Position numbers and translations under genes: made by a program
The notes under the pieces: model-generated
Told to the model about the DNA's origin: nothing
Seen by the model: only the letters and a program-made list of their open reading frames with translations
Database searches by the model: none
From: Clostridia bacterium
GTDB taxonomy: Bacteria > Bacillota > Clostridia > Christensenellales > UBA1242
Length of the DNA: 64,000 nt
Assembly: GCA_045588915.1 (NCBI GenBank)
Contig: JAZNFA010000004.1
Location: forward strand, 131,707 to 195,706
Direction: 5' to 3'
Part shown: piece after piece, positions 2,359 to 56,945 of the stretch
How positions within the stretch are numbered: the stretch's first letter is position 1
Layout: every line of letters starts with the position of its first letter

Positions 2359-3155
2359 TTTAAAATCTCCTTTTGCATTTGTTCTAAGCGTGCGAAATCT
2401 GTACTGTTATAAGTTAAAGGAGCTATGATAATGTAATTCTTTTTGAAATAAGACATTCCTGCCGTTGGCGCAACTTCGGTTTTGTGTGAACTTTCACGTT
2501 CGACTAATTGAGCCCAGTAATACTTATTTCCCTTACAATCTTCTTTTTCCAAATAACGTGTCATTTTAGTTAAGTTATCCATTGATGAGATACCCACACC
2601 TTGGAAGTCATCATAACTTTTGACCAGTGGAATGGTAATATTTAAAAATGTGTCGGTTGGTAATTTAGCCTTCGCAAACTTATCAATATTTTTTGCAATG
2701 AATTGAGCAGCTGGTAAAAGATCGCTTTCTTTATGTCCACCCATTTGCATTGGCACACCAACAGCAATACAAGGCACATTACTGAAGACAGCTTGCATCG
2801 CCATTCCAATATTTGAAGAACAGAAGACATCAGTTCCCAAAGAGATTCCATTACTAATTCCACAGATCACAATTTGTGGTTTACGGTGACGCATAATATT
2901 GCCAAGCATAATCGAAATCATATCAGCTGGCGTACCTTGAAATTTATAAGCCGGAATGCGTGTACCGTTTATGGTATAATTCGAGATTTGTTTAAACTTA
3001 GTTGGAAAACCACTGTATGAAAATGCATTCCCCTTTTGACGGCTGGAACCTTCCAAAGAACAAACAGTTACCGAGTGTTTTTTGGCCAATTCTCCAGCCA
3101 ACACTTTCAGTTCTGCTGATTCCAAATTTCTCACATTTGCAATTAGGATATTCAT
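2355..3155 (-). CDS. Second, more degenerate SurE-like paralog
   Basis: Same length class and layout as the gene downstream (MNILIANVRN..., GTPADMI, CGISNGISLGTD). The DD metal ligands are replaced by VR. It overlaps the next surE-like gene by 4 nt. Confidence 0.5.
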   Translation of the reverse strand: MNILIANVRNLESAELKVLAGELAKKHSVTVCSLEGSSRQKGNAFSYSGFPTKFKQISNYTINGTRIPAYKFQGTPADMISIMLGNIMRHRKPQIVICGISNGISLGTDVFCSSNIGMAMQAVFSNVPCIAVGVPMQMGGHKESDLLPAAQFIAKNIDKFAKAKLPTDTFLNITIPLVKSYDDFQGVGISSMDNLTKMTRYLEKEDCKGNKYYWAQLVERESSHKTEVAPTAGMSYFKKNYIIIAPLTYNSTDFARLEQMQKEILK

Positions 3156-22698: not shown

Positions 22699-22713
22699 AT
22701 AATGATTGTAGCA
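22699..22713 (-). promoter_or_regulatory. Extended -10 (TGcTACAAT) 6 nt upstream of the ackA ATG
   Basis: Complement of 22705-22713 reads TGCTACAAT. Six nt separate it from the ATG at 22698, with no SD. Confidence 0.45.
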
Positions 22714-22726
22714 TAATTTTTTTTTG

Positions 22727-22741
22727 TGGTATAATAGTTTA
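22727..22741 (+). promoter_or_regulatory. Extended -10 (TGgTATAAT) 6 nt upstream of the tmcAL ATG
   Basis: TGGTATAAT at 22727-22735, then agttta, then ATG at 22742. No SD. Confidence 0.5.
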
Positions 22742-24013
22742 ATGAAGATTGCTGTAATTATTGCCGAGTTTAATCCCTTACACAAGGGACATGAATATTT
22801 AATTCAGCAAACACGTGCTTTAACCGACTGTACGCATATTATTGTAGTCCAAACAGGAAACTTTACACAACTTGGTGAACCTGCCATTATTGAAAAACAC
22901 TTACGTGCACAAAGTGCTGTAATGTGTGGTATTGACGCCGTGATTGAAATGCCGACGGCATTCGCAACAGCTAATATTGAAGTTTATGCAAAAGCCGGAG
23001 TACAACTTGCGAATGTGATTCCTCACGCCAGTTATTTGGTTTTCGGTGTAGAAGATAACAATATGGCAATCTTGAAAGAAATTGCTTACGTCAAACTTAA
23101 ACAAAGTCACGAATATGAAAAATACTTAAAAATTCACTTAAAAGCAGGTCTATCTTATGTTGCCGCACAAGGTGAAGTAATTAAAAAGTTGTTACCTAAA
23201 ATTCCACCAGCTGTGATTACACGTATTTTAAACGGAGCAAATAACATTTTAGCAATCGAATATCTTCGTGAATTGTACCGTTTAAAAAGCAATATTCAAC
23301 CAGTTGCGATTACCCGTTTTCAAAAAGGTAAACACGAAACCAATACAACAGCTTTGGCAATTCGTGATGCTTATTACGCAAACAACCTTTCTTTTGAAGA
23401 CCATATTCCAGCACAAGTACTGCCCTTCATTATGGAGTCAATTGAAAAACATCCAATTAAGGAAATGTTCGAGTCAACAATTTTATTCAATACTTTAAAT
23501 GAACTTGATGTACGACAAACAAACGACGTAACACCAGATATCGTAAATATGTTCCGTACACGTCGCCCAGTTACTTACCAACAATTAACGACGGCAGTTC
23601 AAAATACTAACTATACCCCTAAACACGTCAAACGTGTTGCTTTACACGCAACCTTAGGTATTACACAAAAAGATATCAACCTTATCTATCAAAATAATTA
23701 CTTACCATACACTAACCTATTAGCCATTCGTAGCGATGCTCATGAATTATTTAACGAGCTAACGTCAATTCGTCACACACCGGTGGTTACCCACGGTAAC
23801 CGTAATCGTCCAGTTATGAACAAATACTGTTTGCGTTTGCGTCAGATTGACCAACGCGCAACAATACTTTATGAAATCTCCTGTAAACAAAGATTTTCGC
23901 AACAACCATTATATGTTAATACTCAGACGACACCAAGCGAACCAATCATTTCGGATGAACCAATCCAAGCACCAACCGATACAGCAACAGAAACCACCGA
24001 GAACGAGAATTAA
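22742..24013 (+). CDS. tmcAL: UPF0348/YlbM-type nucleotidyltransferase (tRNA-Met cytidine acetate ligase family)
   Basis: MKIAVIIAEFNPLHKGHEYLI (HxGH nucleotidyltransferase motif), GANNILAIEY. Thr/Pro/Glu-rich C-terminal tail. Confidence 0.7.
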   Translation: MKIAVIIAEFNPLHKGHEYLIQQTRALTDCTHIIVVQTGNFTQLGEPAIIEKHLRAQSAVMCGIDAVIEMPTAFATANIEVYAKAGVQLANVIPHASYLVFGVEDNNMAILKEIAYVKLKQSHEYEKYLKIHLKAGLSYVAAQGEVIKKLLPKIPPAVITRILNGANNILAIEYLRELYRLKSNIQPVAITRFQKGKHETNTTALAIRDAYYANNLSFEDHIPAQVLPFIMESIEKHPIKEMFESTILFNTLNELDVRQTNDVTPDIVNMFRTRRPVTYQQLTTAVQNTNYTPKHVKRVALHATLGITQKDINLIYQNNYLPYTNLLAIRSDAHELFNELTSIRHTPVVTHGNRNRPVMNKYCLRLRQIDQRATILYEISCKQRFSQQPLYVNTQTTPSEPIISDEPIQAPTDTATETTENEN

Positions 24014-24048: not shown

Positions 24049-25134
24049 TTATAACTTACGCAATGGAAACGGCAAGCGCTCACCTTTCTTACGATAGTCC
24101 TTTAACAACTGCTTCTTGACAAAAGACGGACGTAGGTCAACTTTCTCGACAGCATCTAGATCCAACCACACAGGTTTGTAAAAACCACCTTTACGTTCTG
24201 GGTCAGTATATTCTTCGGCATCGGTAGTTTGTGGTTCGCCGTTTTGATACTCGCAAACCATAAAAGACTGCCAACCGTCACCACGATGATGTTTATGGTC
24301 TTCGTACCAAAATTTATACAACTCACGGAACGGACGTGCCACCACACTGGTTTCTTCCAAAACTTCACGAGCACAGGCTTCGGACAAAGTTTCGCCGGGG
24401 TCAATATGCCCACCAGGAAAAACATAATACTCTTGACCGTCACGTATACGATGAATTGCCAATAACTTATTCTTGTGAATCACAATCCCACGACCAATAA
24501 TACTTGGTTCTTTTTGCCACGCTTTCAACTTGGGTGGCTTACTGAAACCAACTAATAGTTGTTGCATTTGATATTGAACTCGATCCCCTAAACGATTGAT
24601 ACCATCTTTCGTCATTCGACCATCTTGTAAATATTCAGTAACATTAATCGCTGTTCCTACTTTAATCCGTGTTAAACGGAACATACGCATTGGTCGGTCG
24701 GTTACCACAGGAATAATTGGTACACCACTACGCAATGCTACCATCGCAACACCATTTTGAATTTTTAATTTATCTTCGGCGTTAAATGAACGATGACCTT
24801 CCGGCATTACAGCCAACAAACCATTTTTTTGCAAAACTTTTTGACTATCACGCATCAATGCTAATTCAGCATCACTCTTTACAGGTATACAACCTAAACT
24901 TTTAAAAAACCAACGACCAAAGCCTTTTTTGAAAAGTTCCCCTTTACTCCAAAAGTAGGTTTTGCGCCAAACATCAATTACCAATAATGGACCATCAAAA
25001 GCGCTACGGTGATTCATTGCCAAAATCACAGGTTTACCACGAAACTTACGTAGTTCTTTTTTGTTAATCCATTTTGTCCAAAATAATAACTTAAACGGAA
25101 TGTAGCAAATCAGCTTTAATAAAAATCTTAACAT
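24049..25134 (-). CDS. PlsC-type acyltransferase fused to a NUDIX hydrolase domain
   Basis: N-terminal half has NHRSAFD (HX4D) and MPEGHRS motifs. C-terminal half has the Nudix box GGHIDPGETLSEACAREVLEETS. Confidence 0.75.
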   Translation of the reverse strand: MLRFLLKLICYIPFKLLFWTKWINKKELRKFRGKPVILAMNHRSAFDGPLLVIDVWRKTYFWSKGELFKKGFGRWFFKSLGCIPVKSDAELALMRDSQKVLQKNGLLAVMPEGHRSFNAEDKLKIQNGVAMVALRSGVPIIPVVTDRPMRMFRLTRIKVGTAINVTEYLQDGRMTKDGINRLGDRVQYQMQQLLVGFSKPPKLKAWQKEPSIIGRGIVIHKNKLLAIHRIRDGQEYYVFPGGHIDPGETLSEACAREVLEETSVVARPFRELYKFWYEDHKHHRGDGWQSFMVCEYQNGEPQTTDAEEYTDPERKGGFYKPVWLDLDAVEKVDLRPSFVKKQLLKDYRKKGERLPFPLRKL

Positions 25135-25138
25135 ATTT

Positions 25139-25762
25139 TTATTTTAATATAATAGATAACATTTCGTCCACCACTTCATCAGCCTGACGACCTGTGGTAT
25201 CAAATTCAATAGCATCGGCAACTTTTACTAACGGAGCAACATCACGTTCCATATCCAAACGGTCACGTTCAGCTGTTAAACGCAATACTTCTTCGTAAGT
25301 AATCTTTTCGCCTTTTTGTAAAAAGTCATTCAAACGACGACGAGCACGTTCTTCCAAACTAGCTGTAATGTAAAATTTAAAATCAGCATTTGGGAAAGCC
25401 ACCGAAGTTGTTTCACGACCTTCAACTACTAAGCTCTGCTCGTGAGCAGTTGTATGTTGAATTTCGTGAACTCGATCTTGTACAGCTGGATTCAATGCTA
25501 CTACAGGCACGTGTGCACCAACTTCAATTGTACGGATTTGTTGAGTAATATCTTCCCCATTCAAAGAGACTAATGTTTGTTTATCTGCACCACACTGAAT
25601 TTCAATCTGGCTTTGACAGTAGTCTATACCACGCAAATCACAAACAGCAATAGCACGATAAATTGCTCCTGTATCTAAACATAAAATGTTTAATTTTTTT
25701 GCCAACTTTTTGGCGATTGTTCCCTTCCCACTAGCTGCTGGTCCATCAATTGCAATAATCAT
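25139..25762 (-). CDS. cmk: Cytidylate kinase paralog (copy 2, divergent NMP-site motif)
   Basis: MIIAIDGPAASGKGT, LDTGAIYRA. EGRETTSV replaces the usual GRD(I/M)GT. The start at 25762 was chosen by alignment with copy 1. Confidence 0.75.
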   Translation of the reverse strand: MIIAIDGPAASGKGTIAKKLAKKLNILCLDTGAIYRAIAVCDLRGIDYCQSQIEIQCGADKQTLVSLNGEDITQQIRTIEVGAHVPVVALNPAVQDRVHEIQHTTAHEQSLVVEGRETTSVAFPNADFKFYITASLEERARRRLNDFLQKGEKITYEEVLRLTAERDRLDMERDVAPLVKVADAIEFDTTGRQADEVVDEMLSIILK

Positions 25763-25815
25763 TCTAGAATTAACTGTAACACGAAGCATATTTTTTGTAA
25801 AAGCAAATTATCAAC

Positions 25816-29108: not shown

Positions 29109-31370
29109 ATGAACCAATTTGAAGACTTTACAACCTTGGATCGTTATTTTCGTGCAGTCAATTATTTATCGGCAGCACAACTCTACTTATGTGATAATCC
29201 AATCCTCGAAAGACCACTCACAAGGAACGACATTAAAAATCGTATCTTAGGTCACTGGGGAACAGTTGTCGGTCAAAACTTCATTTATACACATCTCAGC
29301 CGTGCGATTAAGAAATTCGATCAATCGATGGTTTTGTTATCTGGACCTGGACACGGTGGTAATTTTTTTATTGCGAATGCTTACGTTGAAGGCACATACA
29401 GCGAAGTCTATCCTGAATATACACGTGATAAAGCTGGCTTACAAAAATTATTCCGTACTTTTTCTTTTCCTGGTGGCGTTTCTTCACACGTTGCACCTCA
29501 AATTCCTGGCAGTATGCACGAAGGTGGTGAATTAGGATATTCACTGGCTCACGGCTTTGGTGCCGTCCTTGACCACCCCGAATTAGTGGCTGCCGTTATT
29601 GTTGGCGATGGTGAAGCCGAAACTGGTCCATTGTCAGCTAGTTGGTGGGGTTACAAATTCCTAAACCCTGACAAAGACGGACACGTTTTACCAATCGTCC
29701 ATTTAAATGGTTATAAAATTGCAAACCCAACTATATTAGCACGTATTTCGCCACAAGAACGTCAACAATTTTTCGCTGGCTTGGGTTATGAAGCAATCGA
29801 AATTACTGTCGGGACAAATCCAGCCAATATCTTACAAGATCACCAAATGATGGCACAAGCCGTTGATTACTGCTTACAATGCTTACGTAGTAAAAACGGA
29901 AAACATCCTGTGATTATTTTGAATTCACCGAAAGGTTGGACAGGTCCAGCAGTGGTCGACGGGAAAACAATCACAGGAACTTTTAACGCACACCAAGTAC
30001 CTATTGATATGAGTCAACCACACCATTTGCAATTAGTTAGTGAATGGTTGCAATCTTACCGTCCGGCTGAATTGTTTAATCCAGATGGTAGCTTGCAAGC
30101 TGACATACTAAACTTCTGCCCACAAGGTGCGTTACGTTTATCAGCGAATCCATTAACTTACGGTGGCAAAAAATATACACCTTTAAAGTTACCTAAATTA
30201 CAACAATTTTTTGTTCCAACAACGGGATTAGCACAAGATATGAACGTTTTATCAAATTATATTGCTGGCATTATGCAAGCCAACCCCAATACATTCCGTT
30301 TCTTTACGCCTGACGAAGCTAAATCTAATCGTTTATACGGACCATTCAAAATTACCAACCGGGCCTGGCAAGCAACACGCTATCCCAGTGATGACGGACT
30401 CAGCACGGACGGTAGAATTGTTGACGGTATTCTTTCCGAACACGTTTGCGAAGGTATGTTAGAAGCTTACAATTTAACAGGTCGCCACGGTTTCTTTGCG
30501 ACTTACGAAGCTTTTGGACGTGTGGTAGATAGCATGCTTAGTCAACACGCAAAATGGTTAAAACAAGTTCGTAAAATGCCTTGGCGTACTACACTGCCTT
30601 GTTTGAATGTAATTGCTACCAGTCATACTTGGCAACAAGACCACAACGGATACACACACCAAGATACCGGAATGGCAAGTCATTTATTAGACAAAGACCC
30701 AAATGTAGTACGTTGTTACTTCCCTGCCGATGCTAACACATTACTTGCTGTTTTTGAACGTTGTATGCAAGATACGAACAAAATCAATTTAATTACAGCA
30801 TCCAAGCATCCAACTCGTCAATGGCGTACCGGTGCACAAGCAATGGCTGATGTCAAAGCTGGTATTAGCATTTGGTATGATGTTCCAAATCCGGATGTTG
30901 TTTTGGCTTGTATGGGCGACACACCAACCATTGAATGTTTAGCTGCTTTGAAAATTTTACAAGCACAAGCACCACAACTTAAAGTTCGTTTAGTCAATGT
31001 GATTGATGCGGGAATTTTAGGTGGCCGTGAAGACAGTTTAGATGCTACCAATTATGCACGTATATTTACCAACGACAAACCAGTTGTTTTTGTCTCACAC
31101 ACTTATCGCAACTTAATTTTAGCACTAACGGCACACCGACCAAACAGCCATTTCTACACCGTCAAAGGCTACCGTGAATGTGGCGCAATTACGACAGGTT
31201 TTGATATGCGAGTCTTAAACGAAATTGACCGTTTCCACATTGTGAAAGATATTATTGACGCAACGCAACCTAACCCCAACCTAAGCGATGCAATGGACAA
31301 AGAATTGGAAAACCACCGTGCCTACATTTTACAGCACGGCATCGACCCGGACTGGGTAACAAACTTCTAA
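29109..31370 (+). CDS. xfp: Xylulose-5-P/fructose-6-P phosphoketolase
   Basis: GHWGT, EGGELGY, GDGEAETGP, QDHNGYTHQD and the overall XFP layout. 753 aa. Confidence 0.92.
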   Translation: MNQFEDFTTLDRYFRAVNYLSAAQLYLCDNPILERPLTRNDIKNRILGHWGTVVGQNFIYTHLSRAIKKFDQSMVLLSGPGHGGNFFIANAYVEGTYSEVYPEYTRDKAGLQKLFRTFSFPGGVSSHVAPQIPGSMHEGGELGYSLAHGFGAVLDHPELVAAVIVGDGEAETGPLSASWWGYKFLNPDKDGHVLPIVHLNGYKIANPTILARISPQERQQFFAGLGYEAIEITVGTNPANILQDHQMMAQAVDYCLQCLRSKNGKHPVIILNSPKGWTGPAVVDGKTITGTFNAHQVPIDMSQPHHLQLVSEWLQSYRPAELFNPDGSLQADILNFCPQGALRLSANPLTYGGKKYTPLKLPKLQQFFVPTTGLAQDMNVLSNYIAGIMQANPNTFRFFTPDEAKSNRLYGPFKITNRAWQATRYPSDDGLSTDGRIVDGILSEHVCEGMLEAYNLTGRHGFFATYEAFGRVVDSMLSQHAKWLKQVRKMPWRTTLPCLNVIATSHTWQQDHNGYTHQDTGMASHLLDKDPNVVRCYFPADANTLLAVFERCMQDTNKINLITASKHPTRQWRTGAQAMADVKAGISIWYDVPNPDVVLACMGDTPTIECLAALKILQAQAPQLKVRLVNVIDAGILGGREDSLDATNYARIFTNDKPVVFVSHTYRNLILALTAHRPNSHFYTVKGYRECGAITTGFDMRVLNEIDRFHIVKDIIDATQPNPNLSDAMDKELENHRAYILQHGIDPDWVTNF

Positions 31371-41762: not shown

Positions 41763-43244
41763 TTATTCTTCTTTAATTGCACCAAAACGACGATCACGAC
41801 TTTGATATTCTAATAATGCAGTATGTAAATCTTGCTTACTGAAAGCAGGCCAATGAACTTTTGGGAAATAAAGTTCAGCGTACGAAACTTGCCATAACAT
41901 AAAATTACTTAAACGTTGTTCGCCACTGGTACGAATTAAAAAATCTAATAATGGTTGTTCACTGGTGTATAAATATTTTTGAATAGTGGCACGGTCAACT
42001 TGTGGTGCTAAATTATCAGCTAACATCAAATTCACAGCACGCACTAACTCATCTTGTCCACTGTAATTGATACCTAAGTTTAAAATAAATTGCGTTTCAT
42101 TTTTAGTTGCTTCAAGAGCTGCCGTAGCGTTTTTTACCAATTCAGGTGGGAACTTAGTATAATCACCCATAATATTCAAACGTACGTGTGGATATTTTTT
42201 AACGAAGTCATTCGCTTTTAAATATTTGGTAAAATACTTAAAGAGATAATCTAATTCAGTTTGTGGACGGTTCCAGTTTTCAGTTGAAAAAGCGTAAATA
42301 CTAACAATTGGAATTCCATATCCATAAAAGCATTCTTTAATAATGACATCTAAATTTTTAACACCGTGCTCGTGACCTTTGGTACGTGCCCAACCACGCT
42401 CTTTCGCCCAGCGACCATTACCATCAATAATAAAACCAATGTGCTGTGGTAATTTTTTCAATTCAGTCGCCATAAGCTTTTCTCCTTTTGTAATTTTTGG
42501 CTGCAACGCTTCACTGGTAGTTACAATACCATTTTGTGCAATGATAGTTTTGGCACGAGCCATTCCTAGTTGATATTGTTCTTCCGTAATATACTTATGT
42601 TTCAATAAGTAATCGGCATAGTAATACTCACGACGGCTTTGCGCTGCACCACTGGTCGCACTATCACTACGAAAGAGTACCACAAAAAAGGTTTTAATGA
42701 CAATCATTAAATCACGCCAGAATGAAATTTTACGTTGATAGGTTAAATGTTTTTCAATAACCTCTTCCCAACTTGCCGAGCTTCGACCACCTGACACTTG
42801 CGCCAAGCCGGTTAGTCCTGGTCGTACACGGTAAATGCTTAATTCTTCGGCAGTCCAAAAAACAACATCTTTCACTAAAACTGGACGAGGCCCAACAAAG
42901 CTCATTTCACCACGCAAAATATTCACCAACTGTGGTAATTCATCCAAACTAAAACGACGTAAAAACTTACCGAATGCTGTAATCCGTGCGCCGTCAGGAA
43001 GTAAATTTCCTTGCGCATCGGTTTTATCATTCATAGTCCGAAATTTGTAAATTTTAAAAACTTGACCGTTGCGTCCTGGACGAACTTGACTAAAGAAAAC
43101 TTTGCCGTGAATAAACATTTTGGAACAAAGCATCAAAACAAGAAACAAAGGCAATAAAGTAATTAACAAGAGCAAAGCAAAAAGAACGTCTAAACTACGT
43201 TTAAAAAAGCGTTCATAAAAAGTTTGTTGCCCTGTACGTTGCAT
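41763..43244 (-). CDS. uppS: Fusion: monotopic phosphoglycosyl transferase (bacterial sugar transferase) plus undecaprenyl-diphosphate synthase
   Basis: The N-terminal ~200 aa show KRSLDV...PGRNG..F.IYKFRTM...DELPQL.N.L.GEMS.VGPRP. The C-terminal ~235 aa show IIDGNGRWA, FSTENWNRP and RTSGEQRLSNFMLWQ. One open frame, with an internal ATG at 42473 preceded by AAGGAG. Confidence 0.85.
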   Translation of the reverse strand: MQRTGQQTFYERFFKRSLDVLFALLLLITLLPLFLVLMLCSKMFIHGKVFFSQVRPGRNGQVFKIYKFRTMNDKTDAQGNLLPDGARITAFGKFLRRFSLDELPQLVNILRGEMSFVGPRPVLVKDVVFWTAEELSIYRVRPGLTGLAQVSGGRSSASWEEVIEKHLTYQRKISFWRDLMIVIKTFFVVLFRSDSATSGAAQSRREYYYADYLLKHKYITEEQYQLGMARAKTIIAQNGIVTTSEALQPKITKGEKLMATELKKLPQHIGFIIDGNGRWAKERGWARTKGHEHGVKNLDVIIKECFYGYGIPIVSIYAFSTENWNRPQTELDYLFKYFTKYLKANDFVKKYPHVRLNIMGDYTKFPPELVKNATAALEATKNETQFILNLGINYSGQDELVRAVNLMLADNLAPQVDRATIQKYLYTSEQPLLDFLIRTSGEQRLSNFMLWQVSYAELYFPKVHWPAFSKQDLHTALLEYQSRDRRFGAIKEE

Positions 43245-43673: not shown

Positions 43674-44813
43674 TTATTTTGATTTTTCATTGTTGGGATT
43701 TGTTGGTGGTAGTTCATTCATTTTAGTCTCCTTGTATTTCTCCCATTCACTATCATTATGGTGAAAAATTTCGGATAGACCAATTTTTTTGCGTTTGCCA
43801 ACTGCATAGATGTACCCCCAACTGGTACTGGGTAAACTATTTAATAGTTTGCGTTTTTTAGCATTGTCGACAATTTCTTTGGCACGAAAACCAATGTATA
43901 ACGACAAAGGTTTATGATTTAGTTTACTCAATTTCTTTTGATTTTGACAATCATTATTAACCAGCTTGCGATAACGTTTTTCATAGTAATCTAGTTTTTG
44001 TAGATTATGATACGAAAGCGACCGACAACCCGTATACATTGCCTCAAGTTCAGGTTTGCCCTGAATAAACTGATTGAAGTATGCTACTTCACGCTTCTCT
44101 TCCCAAGCGTCATAATGTTCGGTTTTCATTTTCGCAATGCGTTCTTGATACCGTGCCGATTTAAGTTTAATGAAATCAATTACGTGTTGTGGATAATATG
44201 TATTTTCATAAGTCTGTTGAAGTGCATCTTTGTACCACCAAAATTTTTTCTTTTCGACAAGTTTTTCAGCTTCTAACAACGGCATACCAATTTCTAAATT
44301 TCGCATTTCACTAATAATTTTCGAACGGAAAGCTATATCATAATCTTTGATTTGATGAAAATTATTTGCTGCAGAATGATTCTGCAAATCTTTGATTTGT
44401 GCATAAACAAGTAATTCTTGATACTGGTTTAATTTTTTTTGGAATAATTCGTTGTGATAAATGTCTTCGACAAACTTGCCAATGTTATTGAAGTTCAAAT
44501 ACTGATTAACTAAAAACTGACGATTGATTGCATAATATTTGACAGCATTTTCATTGACGTATTGCCCTAGATTTTTTTGAAGATAAAACGCAGCAATGTA
44601 TTTTTTCAACCAAGGTTCATCATATAAATGTAGTAGCAAATTTTCGGCCGTATAAATATCTTGAGGTTTTTGTTTATGTTTTTGCAAGCTCCTTAAAAAA
44701 TCGGTCTCAAAGTTTTTCGTATATATGGCGTAAGGGTCTCTTACCAAAACTTCAATAATCCGTTTTTTTGCACTTTCAGCAATAATTTCATAAACGCGTT
44801 CAGCAACAACCAT
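43674..44813 (-). CDS. Uncharacterised basic protein, tandem family member 1 (379 aa, longest)
   Basis: Shares LLLHLYDEPWL, DYD..FR and ENTYYP motifs with the four genes upstream. Confidence 0.7.
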   Translation of the reverse strand: MVVAERVYEIIAESAKKRIIEVLVRDPYAIYTKNFETDFLRSLQKHKQKPQDIYTAENLLLHLYDEPWLKKYIAAFYLQKNLGQYVNENAVKYYAINRQFLVNQYLNFNNIGKFVEDIYHNELFQKKLNQYQELLVYAQIKDLQNHSAANNFHQIKDYDIAFRSKIISEMRNLEIGMPLLEAEKLVEKKKFWWYKDALQQTYENTYYPQHVIDFIKLKSARYQERIAKMKTEHYDAWEEKREVAYFNQFIQGKPELEAMYTGCRSLSYHNLQKLDYYEKRYRKLVNNDCQNQKKLSKLNHKPLSLYIGFRAKEIVDNAKKRKLLNSLPSTSWGYIYAVGKRKKIGLSEIFHHNDSEWEKYKETKMNELPPTNPNNEKSK

Positions 44814-44818
44814 AACGT

Positions 44819-44848
44819 ATTATAGAGAATTCACTACCCCAAAGTCAA
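44819..44848 (-). promoter_or_regulatory. Putative promoter: TTGACT-N18-TATAAT-N5-ATG (family member 1)
   Basis: Complement of 44843-44848 and 44819-44824. ATG at 44813. Confidence 0.55.
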
Positions 44849-44897
44849 GATAGGTATTTTAAATTATTGGTCATAATCAAATGAATTTGATAAAAGT

Positions 44898-44931
44898 GCA
44901 AAAAACTTGCCACCAAAAGCAAGTTTTTTTT
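44898..44931 (-). terminator. Rho-independent terminator after family member 2
   Basis: acttgc / gcaagt stem flanked by A and T runs. Confidence 0.7.
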
Positions 44932-44948
44932 AGATAATAAATACTCGA

Positions 44949-45971
44949 TTATTTTGTTAGATTTTGCTCATCGGTAATTCCCAATTGTTCATTTTTGGCT
45001 TTGAATGATTTTAAACCTTTCAAAACCGTATTTTTTAAGCTACGACGTTTTTTCGTAGACAACATCATATTGCGCATTTTTTCATAGAACTTGAGCTTTG
45101 CATCTAACTTAATCAAATCAAGTTTGTTCATTTTCATTGTTTTAGTTGCTAAACCTAAGTCGTCGATGATTTGGTAATGCATTTGATAATAATCATATTC
45201 ACGACGTTGCAACCAAACTTCTTGATGTGCTTGTTTTAATTTCATCAAAGCTTTCCACCACAAAGAAAATTCTTGTCTATCTTTAATCACTTCTGCCAAT
45301 GGATAATATTTATTTTCAAAAGCAATAATCATCGATTTTTTACGCCATAAATCTGCTGATTCTTCCAAACCAACTTCAACATCATATTTGAAGACTCCAT
45401 TACTCGACATAACTTCCATAACATCCCTACGGAAGTTAAGGTCAAAGTAACTACTATTTTTCTTCATAAATGGCGTAGTAGAATCTTTCATCAAAGCATT
45501 TGATATACCAGCCGTAATCATATACTCTGCTTGTGCGCCAGTCAGTGCACGTACAAATTGACGGCGAATAGAAGCAAATGCAATTGAATTTTTCACAAAG
45601 TTACGTAACTCTCGCATAGAAATTTTAGCGTTTGGTCGATGTTTTTTCATCACTTCGCTGACATAATTGATTAACCAATTATCATCATACAAATGCAATG
45701 GTAAATATTCGACTGTATAAACATTTTTAATTTTTCGATCAAGTTCTTTAAATGAATGATTGAAAACGATGTTTCTTACCTTTTCCTTTGGAAAAATATG
45801 ATGAAGCTCAGCACATAACTCACCGTGCTCTTGCATATGTTTCGCATTTTTTTCAAGTCTCTCGCATTCCTTGTAATAAGCAACACGTTCCTCATAAGTC
45901 ATTCTTTCGACTTCTTGCGTATAGTATTTTTTTCTATACTCAAACATTTGATTCATACTTACAAATTCCAT
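44949..45971 (-). CDS. Uncharacterised basic protein, tandem family member 2
   Basis: LPLHLYDDNWL, AFENKYYP, WLQRREYDYY, GLATKTMKM. The second ATG (45971) lies 6 nt from the -10. The track start is 45974. Confidence 0.7.
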   Translation of the reverse strand: MEFVSMNQMFEYRKKYYTQEVERMTYEERVAYYKECERLEKNAKHMQEHGELCAELHHIFPKEKVRNIVFNHSFKELDRKIKNVYTVEYLPLHLYDDNWLINYVSEVMKKHRPNAKISMRELRNFVKNSIAFASIRRQFVRALTGAQAEYMITAGISNALMKDSTTPFMKKNSSYFDLNFRRDVMEVMSSNGVFKYDVEVGLEESADLWRKKSMIIAFENKYYPLAEVIKDRQEFSLWWKALMKLKQAHQEVWLQRREYDYYQMHYQIIDDLGLATKTMKMNKLDLIKLDAKLKFYEKMRNMMLSTKKRRSLKNTVLKGLKSFKAKNEQLGITDEQNLTK

Positions 45972-45977
45972 CATAAA

Positions 45978-46007
45978 ATTATAAATGGGAGCATCTTACA
46001 AAGTCAA
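45978..46007 (-). promoter_or_regulatory. Putative promoter: TTGACT-N18-TATAAT-N6-ATG (family member 2)
   Basis: Complement of 46002-46007 and 45978-45983. The upstream GGGTATTGACTTTG is nearly identical to the member 3 promoter. Confidence 0.55.
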
Positions 46008-46037
46008 TACCCCCAGATAAAATTCATTCAGTTTTTA

Positions 46038-46955
46038 TTACATTGTACGATCATCAAATTGCTTTGGCTTATTGCGACAAGCTTGCAACAGTACAACACT
46101 TGCTTGCTGATACTTAGCTAATCGTTTATCTAAACGTTGTAATTCCTTAGGCTTCATTTCCATTGTTGGTGCAAATAAACCGATCTCTTTTAAAATACTT
46201 TGATGTTCTTGACCATAATCATAGATACGACGTTGCATCCAAACTTTTTTGTGTGCCTGTTGAAAGTGTTGTAAAACTTTCTTTTGTGATTTGGTTGGAT
46301 GAATAAATTTAGTTTTACTAATCGGGTAACATTCATTTTCAAAAGCAATTTCCATACTTTCTGGCAACCATAATTGACTATTCTTTTCTAAAAAGACTTC
46401 GACTCTATGTTCGTCAATACCCAACTTTGTGAACGAGCGTATAACTTGTTCACGGAATTGCTTATCATAATCCTTAATATATTGATAATCATAAGGACAC
46501 ATTCCATCGATTAAAGCGTTAGGCACTGGATTACGTAACATATGATTTAGTTGGATGCTCATTAACCTTTCAATATAGTTATTGCGTTCAATTTCAAACA
46601 ATGGTGATGCTTGGACAAAGGCATTTGCGTTCGCAATCTTGAATTTGTTTTTAAATTCTTTACTTTCAGCAACCTGTGTTAAACACTTAGCCAACCATTC
46701 ATTATCATACAAATGGAATGGTAAAAAATCAGAAGTGTACATTGTTGTTGGTAATTCTTCAGGTTTCGCAAACTCTAAACCTATCAAAGTGCGTGCAATG
46801 TCGTGTTCTTTCGGAAACATTTGACAGATACAATCACACAAAGCTTTAAGCTGTGCAGTCTCCTTATCAATTAAGGCAGTGTCTTTTTGAACTCTTTTCG
46901 AGTGTTGTTTCATACGTTGAGTATTAAAAATATCTGATAATTTTTTTAGTTTCAT
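46038..46955 (-). CDS. Uncharacterised basic protein, tandem family member 3
   Basis: LPFHLYDNEWL, DYDKQFR, AFENECYP, WMQRRIYDYG, GLFAPTMEM. ATG at 46955; the track start at 46982 is a TTG inside the promoter. Confidence 0.7.
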   Translation of the reverse strand: MKLKKLSDIFNTQRMKQHSKRVQKDTALIDKETAQLKALCDCICQMFPKEHDIARTLIGLEFAKPEELPTTMYTSDFLPFHLYDNEWLAKCLTQVAESKEFKNKFKIANANAFVQASPLFEIERNNYIERLMSIQLNHMLRNPVPNALIDGMCPYDYQYIKDYDKQFREQVIRSFTKLGIDEHRVEVFLEKNSQLWLPESMEIAFENECYPISKTKFIHPTKSQKKVLQHFQQAHKKVWMQRRIYDYGQEHQSILKEIGLFAPTMEMKPKELQRLDKRLAKYQQASVVLLQACRNKPKQFDDRTM

Positions 46956-46962
46956 CACATTT

Positions 46963-46992
46963 ATTATATATGATTGCAACAAGCAAGGTCAA
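46963..46992 (-). promoter_or_regulatory. Putative promoter: TTGACC-N18-TATAAT-N7-ATG (family member 3)
   Basis: Complement of 46987-46992 and 46963-46968. Confidence 0.55.
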
Positions 46993-47012
46993 TACCCACG
47001 GCTAATTTTGGA

Positions 47013-47569
47013 TTACATTTCGTAATTAACGACATTATCATAAATTAAAGAACCAAGTCTATTGATTTTATTTTTAACACTGCGCGCTTGACCAGGTGTA
47101 AGTTTCATATTTTGTGTCGCTACACCTAATTCATCAATGACGTGTTTATGTTTTAGGTAATATTTATATTCACGATAAATGAACCAATTTTCCTTAAAAG
47201 TTTTTTCTAATAGTTTATTTTGCGATGATTGCATCACATAATAATCGTCATTTTTAACGTGTAAGTAATAATAAAAATCAATCGCTTTTTTCACTGACAT
47301 CTTGCTTTTTTTGATTAGCAATCCCACTGATATGTTTAACCATCCAATCTTTATTGGATAAATGCAAAGCTACAATATTATTTTCTACTTTCTTCGTCAG
47401 GGAAAATCAAAGGCAATAATTGAAATAACCGTTCAAATTCTAATTTTTTATTTGTATCATCTTTAAAAGGAATTGAATCATTTGTAAACTTATCAAGAGT
47501 TAATTCTTTGACTTGCTGTGGTTTTTGTTGATGACAAAAACTGCTTTTTAAATTGTGGAGTTTCGGCAT
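47013..47569 (-). pseudogene. Decayed family member 4 (frameshifted, central region deleted)
   Basis: Three frames carry collinear family segments: the N-terminus (LFQLLPLIFPDEE), IVALHLSNKDWMVKHI, and the C-terminus (FIYREYKYY, GVATQNMKL). The AFEN.YYP region is missing. An A7 tract on the coding strand (47306-47312) sits at one frame junction. Confidence 0.7.
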
Positions 47570-47571
47570 TC

Positions 47572-48519
47572 TTAAATACTTTTCTCTACTTCACTTTTGT
47601 TTTTAACTTTGTTTTTTTCTTGACTTTGTTTTAACAAAGCAACACGTTCGTCATTAAAACCAGTAGATTTTTTAATACAATCAAAATAACTAAATTGACT
47701 CATACCCATATTTTCAGTGAAAGTTCCTGCTTTTTTAATCACTTTAAAATGATTCCCACCATAATAAAATTCATAATGTTTTAACCATTCTTCGCGATGC
47801 TTTTTATGCAATTCACACCACTTCATATAAAGATTATCATTCTTTGGTTCGTCAGCTTGTGGATAATAAAATTCGTCAAAAGCACGTATCATATTTTGTC
47901 GGCGCCATAAGTCTGCATTCTTTTCTAAATTAAATTCAGCAGTAGATCGTTTTAACCCTAAAATTTTCATACAAAAAATAACTTTGTCGCGGAGAATTTC
48001 ATCATAAGGAACAAAACAACGACGAACTTTTTTATCACAAAAAGGATCGGACACGGTGGTATTTGCAATAAACTCTTTAACAAAACTATCTTGATAATTA
48101 CTTAAACCTTGATTAAATTCAAGTGAATCTCGGATAAAGTTTTTAACGACAGTACGACTGTAATTAAATTCAGGAACTTCCTTTTTAACAACAGCAATAA
48201 CATGCTCTGCAAGAAATTCATAATCATTCATATGTAAAGGCAAACGCTTGACAGGTTCTTTTTGTGTTTTTTCAAAATTCTTAATTTCTTTTTTAACAAT
48301 TTCCACCATGCGCTTACGTTGTTCTACGTTAAAGCTTTTGTCTTCAAGCAAAACATCTTCAATATTAAATTCATGGAAAAACTGACAAATGTTCACTACG
48401 GAATCATTATCCATTGTGAAAATTTTATCAAGGTTTTCGATAATAACTTTAAACTGTGGTTTTAATTTTGTGCTTGTTACAGTTGTACTTAGTTTCGTTA
48501 ATTTTTTTGCATCAGCCAT
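47572..48519 (-). CDS. Uncharacterised basic protein, tandem family member 5
   Basis: LPLHMNDYEFL, PYDEILRDKV, AFDEFYYP, WLKHYEFYYG. Possible TTGACA-N18-TATACA-N8-ATG promoter at 48528-48557. Confidence 0.7.
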   Translation of the reverse strand: MADAKKLTKLSTTVTSTKLKPQFKVIIENLDKIFTMDNDSVVNICQFFHEFNIEDVLLEDKSFNVEQRKRMVEIVKKEIKNFEKTQKEPVKRLPLHMNDYEFLAEHVIAVVKKEVPEFNYSRTVVKNFIRDSLEFNQGLSNYQDSFVKEFIANTTVSDPFCDKKVRRCFVPYDEILRDKVIFCMKILGLKRSTAEFNLEKNADLWRRQNMIRAFDEFYYPQADEPKNDNLYMKWCELHKKHREEWLKHYEFYYGGNHFKVIKKAGTFTENMGMSQFSYFDCIKKSTGFNDERVALLKQSQEKNKVKNKSEVEKSI

Positions 48520-53630: not shown

Positions 53631-55154
53631 TTACTTAATTTTTACCATACTTGGATTGAACGCTGGATTTACCGGAACACCCATTAAGGTACAAACTGTC
53701 GCAGCAATATTCGTTAAACCGAACTCGCCGTCTTGCAATTTTACATCTGGCGTTCCAAATGGACAAATTATCATCGGGACTAAATTGTTTGTATGTGAAG
53801 TTTTGGTCTTGCCTGTTTCGTCCGCCATTTCTTCGGCGTTGCCGTGGTCAGCCGTAATAATCAAATTAACACCTTGCGCACGACAAACCTCGTACAAGCG
53901 CCCTACACATTCATCAACCGTTTGGCAAGCAATCACAGCTGCGTCAAAGTTACCGGTATGACCTACCATATCTGGATTTGGTAAATTACATTTTAAGAAA
54001 TCGTATTCGCCGCTTTCAATCGCCGCAATCAATTTTTCGGTAATTGGTTCAGCTTGCATTTTCGGAGCTTTATCATACAAGTTATTCAACTTATCACTGG
54101 GAATTTCTAACCATGTTTCTATTTGTGAATCAATTGGTGCACTTTTGTTGCCATTAAAGAAATAAGTCATATGACCGAATTTAACCGTTTCGGTAACTGT
54201 GTACTGACGCACACCGTGTTCACATAACCAAGAAGTCAATGTGTTGTTAATTACTGGTGGTTCACATAAATAGTTCGCAGGCAAATTCATTTCGGCATCA
54301 TACTGTAAGATACCAGCGAAATAACAATCTTTAATCATTGCAAATTGTTCAGCCGTGATATAGTCGCCGTTATCGAACATACGAGCTGTTTCAACGGCAC
54401 GGTCGCCACGATAATTTAACAATAAAATTGCTTCACCGTTTTTAATTAAGTTATCAGGGTCAACGATGACTGGTGGAACTTGTTCGTCAGACAAGGTCGG
54501 ATGCGCTTGATAAAATTCTTCCAAATACGTACGCCAATCTTGAACCACAGGTGCTTTCCCTTCCACACAGACTTCAAAAGCTTTAGTGAGCATTTCGGTT
54601 TGCGCTTGATAACGGTCCATAAAGATTTGACCACGTCCACCGATAACTGACAAGTTTGGTACTTGTGCCAAAAATTCAGCTGCCGAACGTGGACTGACGT
54701 CACGTCCATCGGTAATCGCAATCACGCTGAATGGCAAGTTTTGTTTTTGACATTGTTCAATAACTTGAAACAAATGTTCAATATTACTGTGTACTCGTCC
54801 GTTACTGCACAAGATGATAATGTTCAATTTTGGGAAAGTGCTGATTTTTTGCCAGACGGATGATTCAAAAATCTTACCAGTGGCAAAGGCATCATTCAAC
54901 AAAGATAAGCCCTGCTTAATTGTTACACCAGCACCCATTGCATTGTGGCCAACTTCACTATTGCCGGCATCTTTCGCACTATCAAGTCCCACCTCGTGTC
55001 CACTGGCACGGATTAAAGTACTGAGATGCGCTGCCTTTGCTTTGTTTAAGTTTGGCATACCTGCCGCCGTTACAGCATTTCCTGCTGTGCGTTCACAATG
55101 ACCTAAACCGTCCATTACACATAAAACCGTTTTGTTAAATTGTTTATTTGTCAT
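53631..55154 (-). CDS. gpmI: 2,3-bisphosphoglycerate-independent phosphoglycerate mutase
   Basis: MDGLG, GNSEVGH (catalytic Ser), TADHGNAE. 507 aa. Confidence 0.9.
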   Translation of the reverse strand: MTNKQFNKTVLCVMDGLGHCERTAGNAVTAAGMPNLNKAKAAHLSTLIRASGHEVGLDSAKDAGNSEVGHNAMGAGVTIKQGLSLLNDAFATGKIFESSVWQKISTFPKLNIIILCSNGRVHSNIEHLFQVIEQCQKQNLPFSVIAITDGRDVSPRSAAEFLAQVPNLSVIGGRGQIFMDRYQAQTEMLTKAFEVCVEGKAPVVQDWRTYLEEFYQAHPTLSDEQVPPVIVDPDNLIKNGEAILLLNYRGDRAVETARMFDNGDYITAEQFAMIKDCYFAGILQYDAEMNLPANYLCEPPVINNTLTSWLCEHGVRQYTVTETVKFGHMTYFFNGNKSAPIDSQIETWLEIPSDKLNNLYDKAPKMQAEPITEKLIAAIESGEYDFLKCNLPNPDMVGHTGNFDAAVIACQTVDECVGRLYEVCRAQGVNLIITADHGNAEEMADETGKTKTSHTNNLVPMIICPFGTPDVKLQDGEFGLTNIAATVCTLMGVPVNPAFNPSMVKIK

Positions 55155-55890
55155 AATTTACCACTCCATAAAATGAATCTACTTGCAAAGACGAACCAAC
55201 GAAGAAAATACCATCAAGGTCACTTTGCGCCATATAGTTTTTAACGTTCGATGGTGTAATATGTCCACCATAAATAATTGGCAAGCTGGCATCAAGTGGA
55301 TTATTTTTCAAACCGACCAAGCATTCACGAATGTGTTTTGCTACCATATTAACATAATCTGGTGTTGGCAAAATTCCACGTTGCTGTACCCAAATTGGAC
55401 GATAACAAACTACGATATCATTGATATTCGAAACCCCAACCAACGCCCCTTGAATTTGACGTTTTAAAACTTCCAAAGTCAAATTATTTTGGTTTTCGTT
55501 CCAAGTCTCACCCACGCATAGAACAGGAATGATACCATATTTCTTCAACAACTTAATTTTCTTATTAACAACGTCATCTTGCTCAAAACTCAAACGCCAA
55601 GTACCATCACCAACGATACAATACTTAACGCCGTACTCTTTGAGAAGTTGTACGCTCAATTCACCCATACGTCCACCGAATTCAATTTCACTGACATCCT
55701 GAGCACCTAACTGTAAAGGCTTCGGCATTTTTAAACGTGCAATCTCGTAATAACAAGCCGCCGGCGCAATGACAACTTCGGTTTTATTTTTCAGTTCCAA
55801 ACCACGTTGATAAACCTGCTGAAAGAACTCTAAAACTTCTTTCGGGGTCTTGTTTGATTTCCAAGCTGCAAAGAATAATGGTCTACGCAT
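55144..55890 (-). CDS. Triosephosphate-isomerase homolog with substituted catalytic residues (probable pseudoenzyme or neofunctionalised)
   Basis: Collinear with TIM along its full length and located between pgk and gpmI. AAWKSN replaces GNWKMN, VGDGTWR replaces GHSERR, and CYRPIWVQQRG replaces AYEPVWAIGTG. Confidence 0.8.
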   Translation of the reverse strand: MRRPLFFAAWKSNKTPKEVLEFFQQVYQRGLELKNKTEVVIAPAACYYEIARLKMPKPLQLGAQDVSEIEFGGRMGELSVQLLKEYGVKYCIVGDGTWRLSFEQDDVVNKKIKLLKKYGIIPVLCVGETWNENQNNLTLEVLKRQIQGALVGVSNINDIVVCYRPIWVQQRGILPTPDYVNMVAKHIRECLVGLKNNPLDASLPIIYGGHITPSNVKNYMAQSDLDGIFFVGSSLQVDSFYGVVNYDK

Positions 55891-55892
55891 TT

Positions 55893-56945
55893 TCAATGAT
55901 TCTCCTTTTTTTGTAAGCACGCAATACCTGGTAAGGTTGTACCTTCGACAAATTCCAAGGCTGCACCACCACCAGTGGAAATATGTGTGAATTTAAAATC
56001 CTTAACAGCCGCCGCCGTATCGCCACCACCAACAATACTGATAGCATCACTTTGGCTGATGATTTGTGCAATAGCGTGCGTACCACGCGCATTTTCCGGA
56101 TTCACATCGAACTGTCCTAATGGACCATTCCAAAAGATAGTACGACTGCTTTCAATAATCGGACGCCAAGTTTCCACAGTTGCCATTGAGATATCTAAAC
56201 CTTGGTCGGGTGCAATGTGAATCTCTGCACGATGTTGCTTACCGTCGTCTTGCCATTCTTGTGCAATTTTACCACCAACCAAAACGTGGTCAGCTGTATC
56301 GGCCAACTTCAATGCCAAAGGCATTTTATCACTGGCTTTTTTACCACCAATAATCACCGTAAACGGTCGTTGTGGTTGATGCGTAATTTGACTTAGATTT
56401 TCAATTTCACGTGCCATTAAAAAACCAGCATAAGCAGGTAAATAACTTGCCACACCAACTGTGCTGGCGTGCGCACGGTGAGCAGCGCCAAAGGCATCAT
56501 TCACAAAAACATCACCGAGTTGTGCTAATTGTTTTGCAAATTCAGGCTCGTTCGCTGTTTCAGCTTTCGTAAAGCGTGTATTTTCTAACAACAAAACTGC
56601 GCCGTTCGGCAATGCTGCAACTTGTGCTTCAACATTCGCACCAACTGTTTCGGTAGCAAATTGTACTTCCACCCCAGCTAACAATTTTTGCAAATGCAAA
56701 TAAACTGGCTGTAAAGAATATTGTGGCTCTGGCTTACCGTCTGGTCGCCCAAAGTGACTGCACAAGACAACTTTCGCCCCACGTTCTAAACAATAACGGA
56801 CGGTTGGCAAACTATCGACGATACGTTTATCGTCGCTGATTGAACCGTCAACAGCCAACGGTACATTGTAATCAACACGCATTAAAACACGTGTCCCTGC
56901 CTTAATTGGCGCATCAACAACTTTTGCAAAATTTATATTTTCCAT
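55893..56945 (-). CDS. pgk: Phosphoglycerate kinase (short, 350 aa)
   Basis: RVDYNVP, SHFGRP, NDAFGAAHRAHAS, GGKKASDK, WNGPLG, GGGDTA, STGGGA. Confidence 0.88.
   Translation of the reverse strand: MENINFAKVVDAPIKAGTRVLMRVDYNVPLAVDGSISDDKRIVDSLPTVRYCLERGAKVVLCSHFGRPDGKPEPQYSLQPVYLHLQKLLAGVEVQFATETVGANVEAQVAALPNGAVLLLENTRFTKAETANEPEFAKQLAQLGDVFVNDAFGAAHRAHASTVGVASYLPAYAGFLMAREIENLSQITHQPQRPFTVIIGGKKASDKMPLALKLADTADHVLVGGKIAQEWQDDGKQHRAEIHIAPDQGLDISMATVETWRPIIESSRTIFWNGPLGQFDVNPENARGTHAIAQIISQSDAISIVGGGDTAAAVKDFKFTHISTGGGAALEFVEGTTLPGIACLQKKENH

Follow-up and report, generated by a model that had tools for sequence, protein, structure and literature searches.

TpiX, a putative triosephosphate isomerase paralog lacking the catalytic glutamate, encoded between pgk and gpmI in uncultured gut Firmicutes

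The pgk-tpiX-gpmI locus

We analyzed a stretch of 64,000 nucleotides (nt) from Clostridia bacterium (assembly GCA_045588915.1, contig JAZNFA010000004.1, positions 131,707 to 195,706 of the forward strand), referred to below as the window; all coordinates are window positions. Between pgk and gpmI the window carries a gene homologous to triosephosphate isomerase (TIM) in which the catalytic glutamate and other active-site residues have been replaced. We coined the name TpiX for this Glu-less TIM paralog. The tpiX coding sequence occupies 55144-55890 of the minus strand and encodes 248 amino acids (aa) plus a stop codon, with a match to PF00121 and a predicted TIM barrel; its open reading frame (ORF) runs from ATG at 55890-55888 to TAA at 55146-55144. 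Upstream in the same operon is pgk (55893-56945, minus strand, 350 aa; PF00162, E = 1.4e-112), and downstream is gpmI for cofactor-independent phosphoglycerate mutase (53631-55154, minus strand, 507 aa), identified by its Pfam domains and by TIGR01307 (362 bits vs a cut-off of 330.65). An earlier, sequence-only reading of this DNA had placed the gene in the pgk-tpi-gpmI slot with translational coupling on both sides, and both points held: the pgk stop codon lies 2 nt ahead of the tpiX ATG, and gpmI starts with an ATG inside the 3′ end of tpiX, an overlap of 11 nt (ATGACAAATAA in the window). The gpmI overlap recurs in 10 of 15 related loci, the starts being displaced or separated in the other five. 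In the window's clade pgk abuts or overlaps the 5′ end of tpiX, and it is adjacent in all loci of the clade but one (L015). In the window and in 16 of 16 loci from a scan of the GTDB genomes, tpiX comes directly after pgk and/or directly before a phosphoglycerate mutase gene.

The end-to-end homology to bacterial TIMs proposed from the sequence was borne out by Pfam PF00121, which covers the full length of TpiX (residues 6-245 vs profile positions 3-243 of 245, E = 1.3e-49). The protein scores under every NCBIfam TIM equivalog cut-off (106 bits vs 130.6 for TIGR00419), and neither Pfam nor NCBIfam holds a model dedicated to it. An AlphaFold2 model built on a 57-sequence alignment has eight strand-helix units, with a predicted local distance difference test score of 92.6 and a predicted template modeling (TM) score of 0.92. 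In a Foldseek comparison with the Protein Data Bank (PDB), the 50 best matches were all TIMs (TM scores 0.88-0.94, 25-33% identity), and solved TIMs with bound 3-phosphoglycerate, 2-phosphoglycerate and phosphoenolpyruvate (PEP) are among the matches. By sequence the nearest PDB entry is Staphylococcus aureus TIM (E = 2e-37), with ∼31-33% identity to the best solved TIMs; a PDB sequence search found no solved structure closer to TpiX than ordinary TIMs.

Replacement of the catalytic residues

Active-site residues were mapped by residue-level phmmer alignments to the TIMs of S. aureus (3m9y) and Thermotoga maritima (1b9b), and by MAFFT alignments with sets of 215 and 408 canonical TIMs; all of these agree. 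Residue numbers 10, 12, 75, 95-99, 165, 211, 230 and 232 are those of canonical TIM, and all coordinates in this section refer to the minus strand. The sequence-only reading had described replacement of the catalytic Asn by Ala, His by Asp and Glu by Arg, with the Lys retained. phmmer and MAFFT gave this identical mapping, and the codon positions given for the substitutions were exact. In loop 1 (Ala9-Trp10-Lys11, 55858-55866), GNWK has become AAWK: Asn10 is replaced by Ala9 (codon 55864-55866), and the catalytic Lys12 is retained as Lys11 (codon 55858-55860). Loop 4 reads GDGTWR for GHSERR (55594-55611), with His95 changed to Asp95 (codon 55606-55608), Ser96 to Gly, Glu97 to Thr and Arg98 to Trp. 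The end of strand 6 and loop 6 read CYRPIWVQQRG for AYEPVWAIGTG (55375-55407): Ala163 is now Cys, Glu165 is Arg164 (codon 55399-55401), and the lid tip has changed from IGT to QQR, so the rewriting of loop 6 seen earlier is also correct.

Changes extend beyond these residues. Loop 3, the canonical dimer-interface loop, has GRM for A(F/Y)T (55666-55674), with Thr75 changed to Met. By alignment, loops 7 and 8 (55186-55272) have YGGH for YGGS and FFVGSSL for LVGGASL, which change Ser211 to His, Leu230 to Phe and Gly232 to Val. Of the phosphate-gripper loops (loop 6 QQRG, loop 7 YGGH, loop 8 VGSSL), just the YGG and one loop-8 Gly remain. Among the 408 canonical TIMs, Glu165 and His95 are each present in 408, Asn10 in 402, Lys12 in 404 and Thr75 in 407. 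Since Glu and His occur in every canonical TIM and Asn in nearly all, the TpiX substitutions lie beyond ordinary variation in the family.

The relatives that share Arg164 (the Arg clade) conserve these substitutions unevenly. Arg164 is found in 48 of 48 distinct clade sequences, encoded by CGT, CGC or CGA, and the loop-1 Lys is likewise present in 48/48, whereas position 9 may be Ala, Cys or Thr and position 95 His, Asp or Asn. At the other changed positions, 36 of 38 clade members have Met75, all have Phe for Leu230 (38/38) and nearly all have Val or Ile for Gly232 (37/38); Ser211 is gone, and YGG does not vary. By fold and homology TpiX belongs to the TIM family; judged by alignment, it fails on every catalytic residue except the Lys. 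The name triosephosphate isomerase is therefore inappropriate, and TpiX is very probably not such an enzyme.

Selection and conservation

Ratios of non-synonymous to synonymous substitution (dN/dS) were computed by the method of Nei and Gojobori (NG86) and are given as medians over 13 loci, with synonymous sites near saturation. The median is 0.046 for TpiX, 0.044 for gpmI and 0.086 for pgk, and amino acid identity of TpiX is above that of PGK in every locus. TpiX combines the two marks of a pseudoenzyme, loss of essential TIM residues and purifying selection (dN/dS ∼0.046). The suggestion that the gene keeps a function in altered form, and is not simply decaying, is supported by this dN/dS and by the invariance of Arg164 across three synonymous codons. 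Loss of all three listed catalytic residues is what decay would be expected to produce. The likelihood of a pseudogene, or of an error in assembly or annotation, is negligible, given intact ORFs in at least 35 protein clusters, 16 species-level metagenome-assembled genomes (MAGs) and many samples, a dN/dS of ∼0.05 at saturated synonymous sites, and a confident structure model. The Arg-clade ORFs are 247-256 aa long, and decay in place is ruled out by dN/dS.

Five elements are invariant within the Arg clade: Arg164, Cys162, Lys11, Phe229 and YGG. Positional entropy in the Arg clade (mean identity 0.70) was set against that in a canonical TIM clade diverged to about the same degree (mean identity 0.64). 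Entropy in the Arg clade is higher for loops 4, 6, 7 and 8 of the catalytic face (+0.27 to +0.53 bits) and lower for strands 2-5, for alpha-beta loops 2 and 3 on the opposite side of the barrel, and for helices 2, 3, 6 and 7 (-0.4 to -1.35 bits). For dimer-interface loop 3 the two clades show the same conservation. Constraint appears to have shifted from the old active site toward the strands, the helices and the opposite barrel face, and the conservation pattern leans toward a complete absence of catalysis in TpiX.

Distribution and stepwise change in the Arg clade

A search of 5.8 billion proteins found 35 TpiX clusters (90% identity) at 55-99% identity, followed by a gap down to ordinary TIMs at 35% or less. 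Scanning one genome per GTDB species, we found TpiX in 16 MAGs, mostly ‘Clostridia bacterium’ bins from ruminant rumen, caecum and rectum; one of the 16 carriers is a ‘Christensenellaceae bacterium’ MAG whose protein is 48% identical. Two loci (L007 and L008), with the same pgk-tpiX-gpmI operon and 85-86% identity to the window protein, come from MAGs labeled Prevotella sp. These labels are probably binning errors, because all other carriers are labeled Clostridia or Eubacteriales.

The Arg clade can be ordered by divergence into three stages. In the deepest stage (L015 and P0032-P0034) the motifs are ACWK, GHREKRE, CYRPSWTLGTG, YGG(G/N) and FFVGAAL; P0035, of the same stage, has AAWK and GNLEKR. 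The intermediate stage (P0025-P0031 and L014) has ACWK, GH(R/W)E(K/W)R, a lid tip of ERG, YGG(Q/S/H) and FF(V/I)G(A/S)AL, and the window's subclade has A(A/C/T)WK, GDGTWR, a lid tip of VQQRG, YGG(Q/H) and FFVGS(S/A)L. Glu and Asn are already lost in the deepest members, in which His95, Glu97 and the canonical lid are present; the changes of His95 to Asp and Glu97 to Thr arise in the window's subclade. Asp95 is found exactly with Thr, Ile, Ala or Val at position 97 (35 sequences), and His95 or Asn95 exactly with Glu97 (13 sequences). With this pairing an acidic residue is retained near Lys11 in every case, the pocket acid having been relocated from position 97 to position 95. Position 9 varies among Ala, Thr and Cys even between proteins more than 85% identical.

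A wider branch without the catalytic glutamate

A profile search of 1.84 billion cluster representatives returned just three clusters that outrank ordinary TIMs, and one of these, P0120, has Gln in place of Glu. With P0120 as the query, ∼41 further proteins with Gln or Met at this position (P0268-P0308) were found in ‘Firmicutes bacterium’ MAGs and metagenomes. The Gln/Met type keeps His95, Glu97, Lys12 and the lid SIGTG; position 10 has the original Asn in some members and Ser in others. We built a neighbor-joining tree from corrected p-distances with ∼60 canonical TIMs and 200 bootstraps. The Arg clade was recovered in 200/200 bootstraps, the Gln/Met clade in 196/200, and the two together in 200/200. 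Proteins of the window's clade are 36-40% identical to the Gln variants vs ∼32% to canonical TIMs. Both clades have in common the loss of Glu165, Ser96 and Ser211, the changes Met13 to Ala/Ser and Leu230 to Met/Phe and, in most members, Ala163 to Cys. An insertion with Pro56 is present in 38/38 Arg-clade and 39/39 Gln/Met-clade proteins and is a gap in 405/408 canonical TIMs. A path of single codon steps is available from Glu (GAR) through Gln (CAR) to Arg (CGR). The genomic position is also held across the whole branch: the gene adjoins pgk and/or a phosphoglycerate mutase gene in every locus examined but L029/L030, where two small genes lie between the variant and pgk.

At least four Gln/Met-type genomes also encode a canonical TIM, two of them identified by accession proximity. 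The gene order in L034 is pgk-variant-tpiA-apgM, and in L031 it is variant-tpiA-gpmI with no adjoining pgk; in both, the second TIM has the full set of canonical residues. The L031 organism is related to that of the window, since the hflX-glnS-LOG gene order is common to both. For the other two genomes, the variant P0276 (MCL2586947) is paired with P0409 (MCL2586835), 112 numbers apart, and the variant P0273 (MCL2851283) with P0419 (MCL2851161), 122 apart; the partners P0409 and P0419 are canonical. NCBI gives consecutive numbers to proteins from one genome, and each pair therefore probably has a single genome as its source. A further candidate pair, canonical P0447 and variant P0276, each listed on a contig of 126,292 bp, was rejected because the two differ in sample and locus; the equal lengths are a coincidence. 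In a tblastn search over 506 kb (the window and 33 loci), a second TIM was found solely in L031; L034, which also has one, lies outside that set. Accession proximity linked no canonical TIM to the Arg-clade MAGs, as the candidates carried either unrelated accessions or none. The ‘Clostridia bacterium’ NCBI MAGs that have the Arg form contribute no protein to the set of canonical TIMs with 50% or more identity to the sister-lineage tpiA, which is weak evidence that the window's lineage lacks a TIM.

Genes for a HAD-family phosphatase and a His_Phos_1 (dPGM-like) protein recur within a few kb of the Gln-type variant (L029/L030, 8562-9929; L031, 13499-16126; L035, 18271-18813). They may be a clue to a phospho-metabolite function.

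We concluded from the tree and the common characters that TpiX very probably belongs to a distinct Glu-less paralog branch, of which the window protein is the most derived member, carried by uncultured gut Firmicutes. Because less derived members of the branch coexist with a canonical tpiA, the loss of Glu would predate the other changes and needs no lost demand for TIM. Since sister genomes hold both genes, the variant is best regarded as a paralog kept beside TIM, with a function other than triose-phosphate isomerization.

This result bears on the origin of the gene. The sequence-only reading took it for a changed tpiA and pointed to phosphoketolase and acetate kinase as a source of glyceraldehyde-3-phosphate that could remove the need for interconversion of dihydroxyacetone phosphate (DHAP) and glyceraldehyde-3-phosphate (GAP). 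The residue changes are as described, but an in-place origin leaves the account incomplete, as TpiX falls in an older, monophyletic Glu-less branch. Both enzymes are encoded in the window outside the operon, as domain matches confirmed: phosphoketolase by xfp (29109-31370, plus strand; XFP_N, XFP and XFP_C domains) and acetate kinase by ackA (21667-22785, minus strand; PF00871, E = 1.7e-125). The 64-kb window contains no second TIM, aldolase, phosphofructokinase, glyceraldehyde-3-phosphate dehydrogenase or enolase. If the organism's own tpiA had been inactivated in place, with TIM made dispensable by this supply and a secondary role kept, one would expect the exact tpiA slot to be occupied, as it is; xfp and ackA, the lack of a second TIM, aldolase or phosphofructokinase in 64 kb and, weakly, the absence of ‘Clostridia bacterium’ proteins from the canonical set just described point the same way. 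We nevertheless consider this origin quite improbable, because the Arg clade groups with the Gln/Met clade in every bootstrap, with an insertion and derived residues in common, and because sister-clade members coexist with a canonical tpiA (twice in tandem), which makes the loss of Glu independent of TIM demand. The bypass may at most explain the missing canonical copy in the operon and is unneeded for the loss of catalytic residues.

The sister branch also bears on the idea that TpiX is still a working TIM that uses other residues, for instance Asp95 as the base. Its tpiA slot and strong conservation fit this idea, NCBI and JGI name its relatives triosephosphate isomerase, and two Gln variants (133.5 and 131.0 bits) narrowly exceed the TIGR00419 cut-off of 130.6, against which the canonical TIM of the sister lineage scores 158 bits. 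Against it stand the invariance of Glu165 and His95 in the canonical TIMs, the restriction of Asp95 to the youngest subclade while Arg164 occurs throughout, and the sister variants that adjoin a genuine tpiA and would be redundant if both were TIMs. In mutants from the Knowles laboratory, Glu165 to Asp reportedly costs ∼1000-fold and His95 replacements hundreds-fold in activity. A working TIM is very improbable on this evidence.

A proposed role for TpiX

The explanation that we prefer overall, with a probability of roughly 0.45, is that TpiX is a folded, selection-maintained, non-isomerase TIM barrel that acts as a binder or partner. In the least derived relatives TpiX stands beside a normal tpiA (pgk-tpiX-tpiA-pgm), and in the window's lineage TpiX alone is left between pgk and gpmI. 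Loss of Glu was followed by stepwise loss of Asn10, of Ser211 and of the tip of loop 6, with His95 and Glu97 going last. The product would be a non-catalytic dimeric barrel that retains Lys11 and part of the phosphate-gripping loops, with positive charge added to the old pocket and its surroundings by Arg164, Arg171 (lid) and Arg74 (loop 3). Such a pocket might bind an anionic three-carbon phospho-metabolite of lower glycolysis that is more anionic than a triose phosphate (3-phosphoglycerate, 1,3-bisphosphoglycerate, 2-phosphoglycerate or PEP). An additional or alternative ligand might be a glycolytic partner protein, contacted through the strongly conserved strands and helices and the N-terminal face of the barrel. 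Translational coupling would set a fixed proportion of TpiX to PGK and GpmI. We propose an anion binder because Lys is the sole branch-wide pocket residue, negative charge has been removed at position 165, and Arg164, Arg171 and Arg74 have been added.

Several points weigh against this explanation. The binder or partner mechanism is drawn from residue chemistry and conservation patterns. Arg164 may line an open anion pocket or may plug the site, possibly pairing with Asp95. The enzyme-like dN/dS and the invariant Arg164, Cys162 and Lys11 fit a new catalytic function equally well. Long-branch attraction between two fast TIM lineages may have affected the neighbor-joining tree, though the shared insertion argues otherwise. 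Coexistence with a canonical TIM is seen in the Gln/Met sub-branch only and not in the Arg sub-branch.

TpiX could alternatively be a new enzyme, with chemistry that needs no carboxylate base and acts, with Lys11 and Arg164 as key residues, on a substrate more anionic than triose phosphate, for example an acyl-phosphate or carboxylate like 1,3-bisphosphoglycerate, 3-phosphoglycerate, 2-phosphoglycolate or PEP. Selection as strong as that on gpmI, the invariant Arg164, Cys162, Lys11, Phe229 and YGG, and the neighboring pgk and/or phosphoglycerate mutase genes are in its favor, as is the fact that position 165, now Gln, Met or Arg, has lost its negative charge, the sole change common to the whole branch. 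The loop-8 sequence VG(S/A)(S/A)L, which we take to resemble the standard phosphate-binding motif of other (β/α)8 barrels, may be counted on the same side. An active site of this kind is difficult to reconcile with the variability of the pocket, in which no residue besides Lys is kept across the branch (Gln/Met/Arg at 165; His/Asp/Asn at 95; Asn/Ser/Cys/Ala/Thr at 10; Gly/Gln/His/Asn at 211), with the free variation of position 9 among close relatives, or with catalytic-face loops that evolve faster than those of the canonical TIM clade while the remaining barrel evolves more slowly. A new enzyme appears unlikely. A non-catalytic binder or partner is the choice that we tentatively make over a new enzyme, at a little less than even odds.

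The most far-reaching possibility is that TpiX represents the first natural departure from isomerase chemistry in the TIM family. It would then be either a new enzyme of lower glycolysis, working through Lys11 and Arg164 on an acyl-phosphate or carboxylate such as 1,3-bisphosphoglycerate or 3-phosphoglycerate, or an obligatory ligand-sensing subunit that controls or channels flux between PGK and phosphoglycerate mutase, and it would be the sole TIM homolog of a rumen lineage with a reduced genome and a TIM-free central carbon metabolism. We regard this as unlikely.

Neighboring genes and other features of the window

The sequence-only reading stated that pgk and gpmI keep their catalytic motifs. 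The motifs are kept in pgk, but the protein is short by ∼50 residues in the C-terminal domain. Compared with T. maritima PGK (1vpe), the nucleotide-binding C-terminal domain has ∼20 residues in place of residues 221-290, and the flanking motifs are intact. Relatives have a PGK of 349-353 aa, and the copies beside P0032 and P0035, which are deeper variants, measure 366 and 409 aa; PGK thus looks to have been shortened progressively within the lineage. An A_AAA_AAG heptamer (55905-55911, minus strand), a -1 slippery site of the dnaX type, is located at the 3′ end of pgk. Upstream of the tpiX ATG the reading frame stays open as far as a GTG at 55920, and a -1 shift would fuse PGK to TpiX. A programmed -1 frameshift that fuses the two proteins as in T. 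maritima was considered and rejected, because the relative frames and the A-run differ in 15 related loci. The heptamer is probably an accident of the purine-rich (A-rich) ribosome-binding site.

The segment 56998-58253 (minus strand), between the gene for ribosomal protein L1 and pgk, encodes a 345-aa protein of the zeta-toxin family; a small ORF of 73 aa, probably for the antitoxin, overlaps this gene on its upstream side. No match to the zeta toxin was found in L001, L002 or L011-L014, L001 and L002 retaining the small ORF only; in L008 the pair is inverted downstream of gpmI. The module looks mobile, because it is patchy in relatives and is inverted and relocated in L008. The segment 6464-15486 (minus strand) has a 2127-aa ORF that matches nothing in Pfam and, directly downstream of it, a gene for an 873-aa TraG/VirB4-like P-loop ATPase; the ORF may encode a giant protein related to secretion or conjugation. 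The window has two cytidylate kinase genes (929-1591 and 25139-25789, minus strand) and tandem SurE paralogs (1588-2358 and 2355-3155, minus strand), the second being far more divergent (88 vs 149 bits). Two unusual gene fusions were seen, one of a sugar-phosphate transferase (Bac_transf) with undecaprenyl-diphosphate synthase (41763-43244, minus strand; this 498-aa gene is also in L025 and L026) and the other of a PlsC-type acyltransferase with a NUDIX hydrolase (24049-25134, minus strand). Four consecutive ORFs of 314-379 aa with no Pfam match occupy 43674-48519 (minus strand), and L025 and L026 have three ORFs of 316-335 aa, also with no Pfam match, beside an alkaline-phosphatase gene. YchF (305 aa, 15536-16453, minus strand; 283 aa in L015) and HflX (350 aa, 19353-20405, minus strand) are, in our judgement, short for their families. 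The short YchF, HflX and PGK together suggest an organism with a reduced genome.

Significance and comparison with known systems

A literature search found no TIM pseudoenzyme, Glu-less TIM paralog or inactive TIM-like protein, and the branch formed by the Gln/Met and Arg types is, as far as could be found, undescribed. TIM is the textbook ‘perfect enzyme’, and a whole Glu-less branch under enzyme-tight selection is unexpected. The branch offers enzymology a natural series of intermediates, from Glu to Gln to Arg and on to the loss of His, Asn and the lid tip. Public records label these proteins triosephosphate isomerase, and metabolic reconstructions of Firmicutes from the rumen and other gut sites may thus assign to them an isomerase activity that they probably lack. 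Should no other TIM exist in the window's lineage, its central metabolism would be a free-standing case that runs with no DHAP/GAP interconversion.

With canonical TpiA (EC 5.3.1.1; PF00121, TIGR00419) TpiX shares full-length homology, the (β/α)8 fold and the pgk-tpi-gpmI position. It retains Lys12, Arg99, Cys126, Glu129, Pro166, Trp168 and the loop-7 YGG, and loop 3 is equally conserved in both. It differs in nine replaced residues and the QQR lid tip, in scores under the equivalog cut-offs and in an identity of ∼31-33% to the best solved TIMs. TIM-family paralogs with a role beyond DHAP/GAP do exist: the L-erythrulose-1-phosphate isomerases of the EryH/TpiB type act on tetrulose phosphates and, as far as is known, keep the catalytic residues and the proton-transfer chemistry. 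TpiX, unlike them, is without those residues.

As a pseudoenzyme paralog of a metabolic enzyme, the trypanosome AdoMetDC ‘prozyme’ (PMC6221367) offers a parallel. Both are disabled paralogs of an oligomeric enzyme that are held under selection and, in some genomes, stand beside the active paralog. For TpiX there is no sign of a heteromer or of partner activation, and no active paralog was seen in the window's lineage.

The T. maritima PGK-TIM fusion is a precedent for coupling PGK to a TIM fold, both physically and in expression. The NCBIfam model for bifunctional PGK/TIM, PRK13962, is the best-scoring NCBIfam model for TpiX, and pgk and tpiX abut in the window. The TIM domain of the fusion is catalytically canonical, however, and the window has two separate genes. 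The Gln/Met-type homologs are the sister group, with derived residues and the Pro56 insertion in common with TpiX and the same place after pgk and/or before pgm. They differ from TpiX in keeping His95, Glu97, the SIGTG loop 6 and sometimes Asn10, and in having Gln or Met rather than Arg at position 165.

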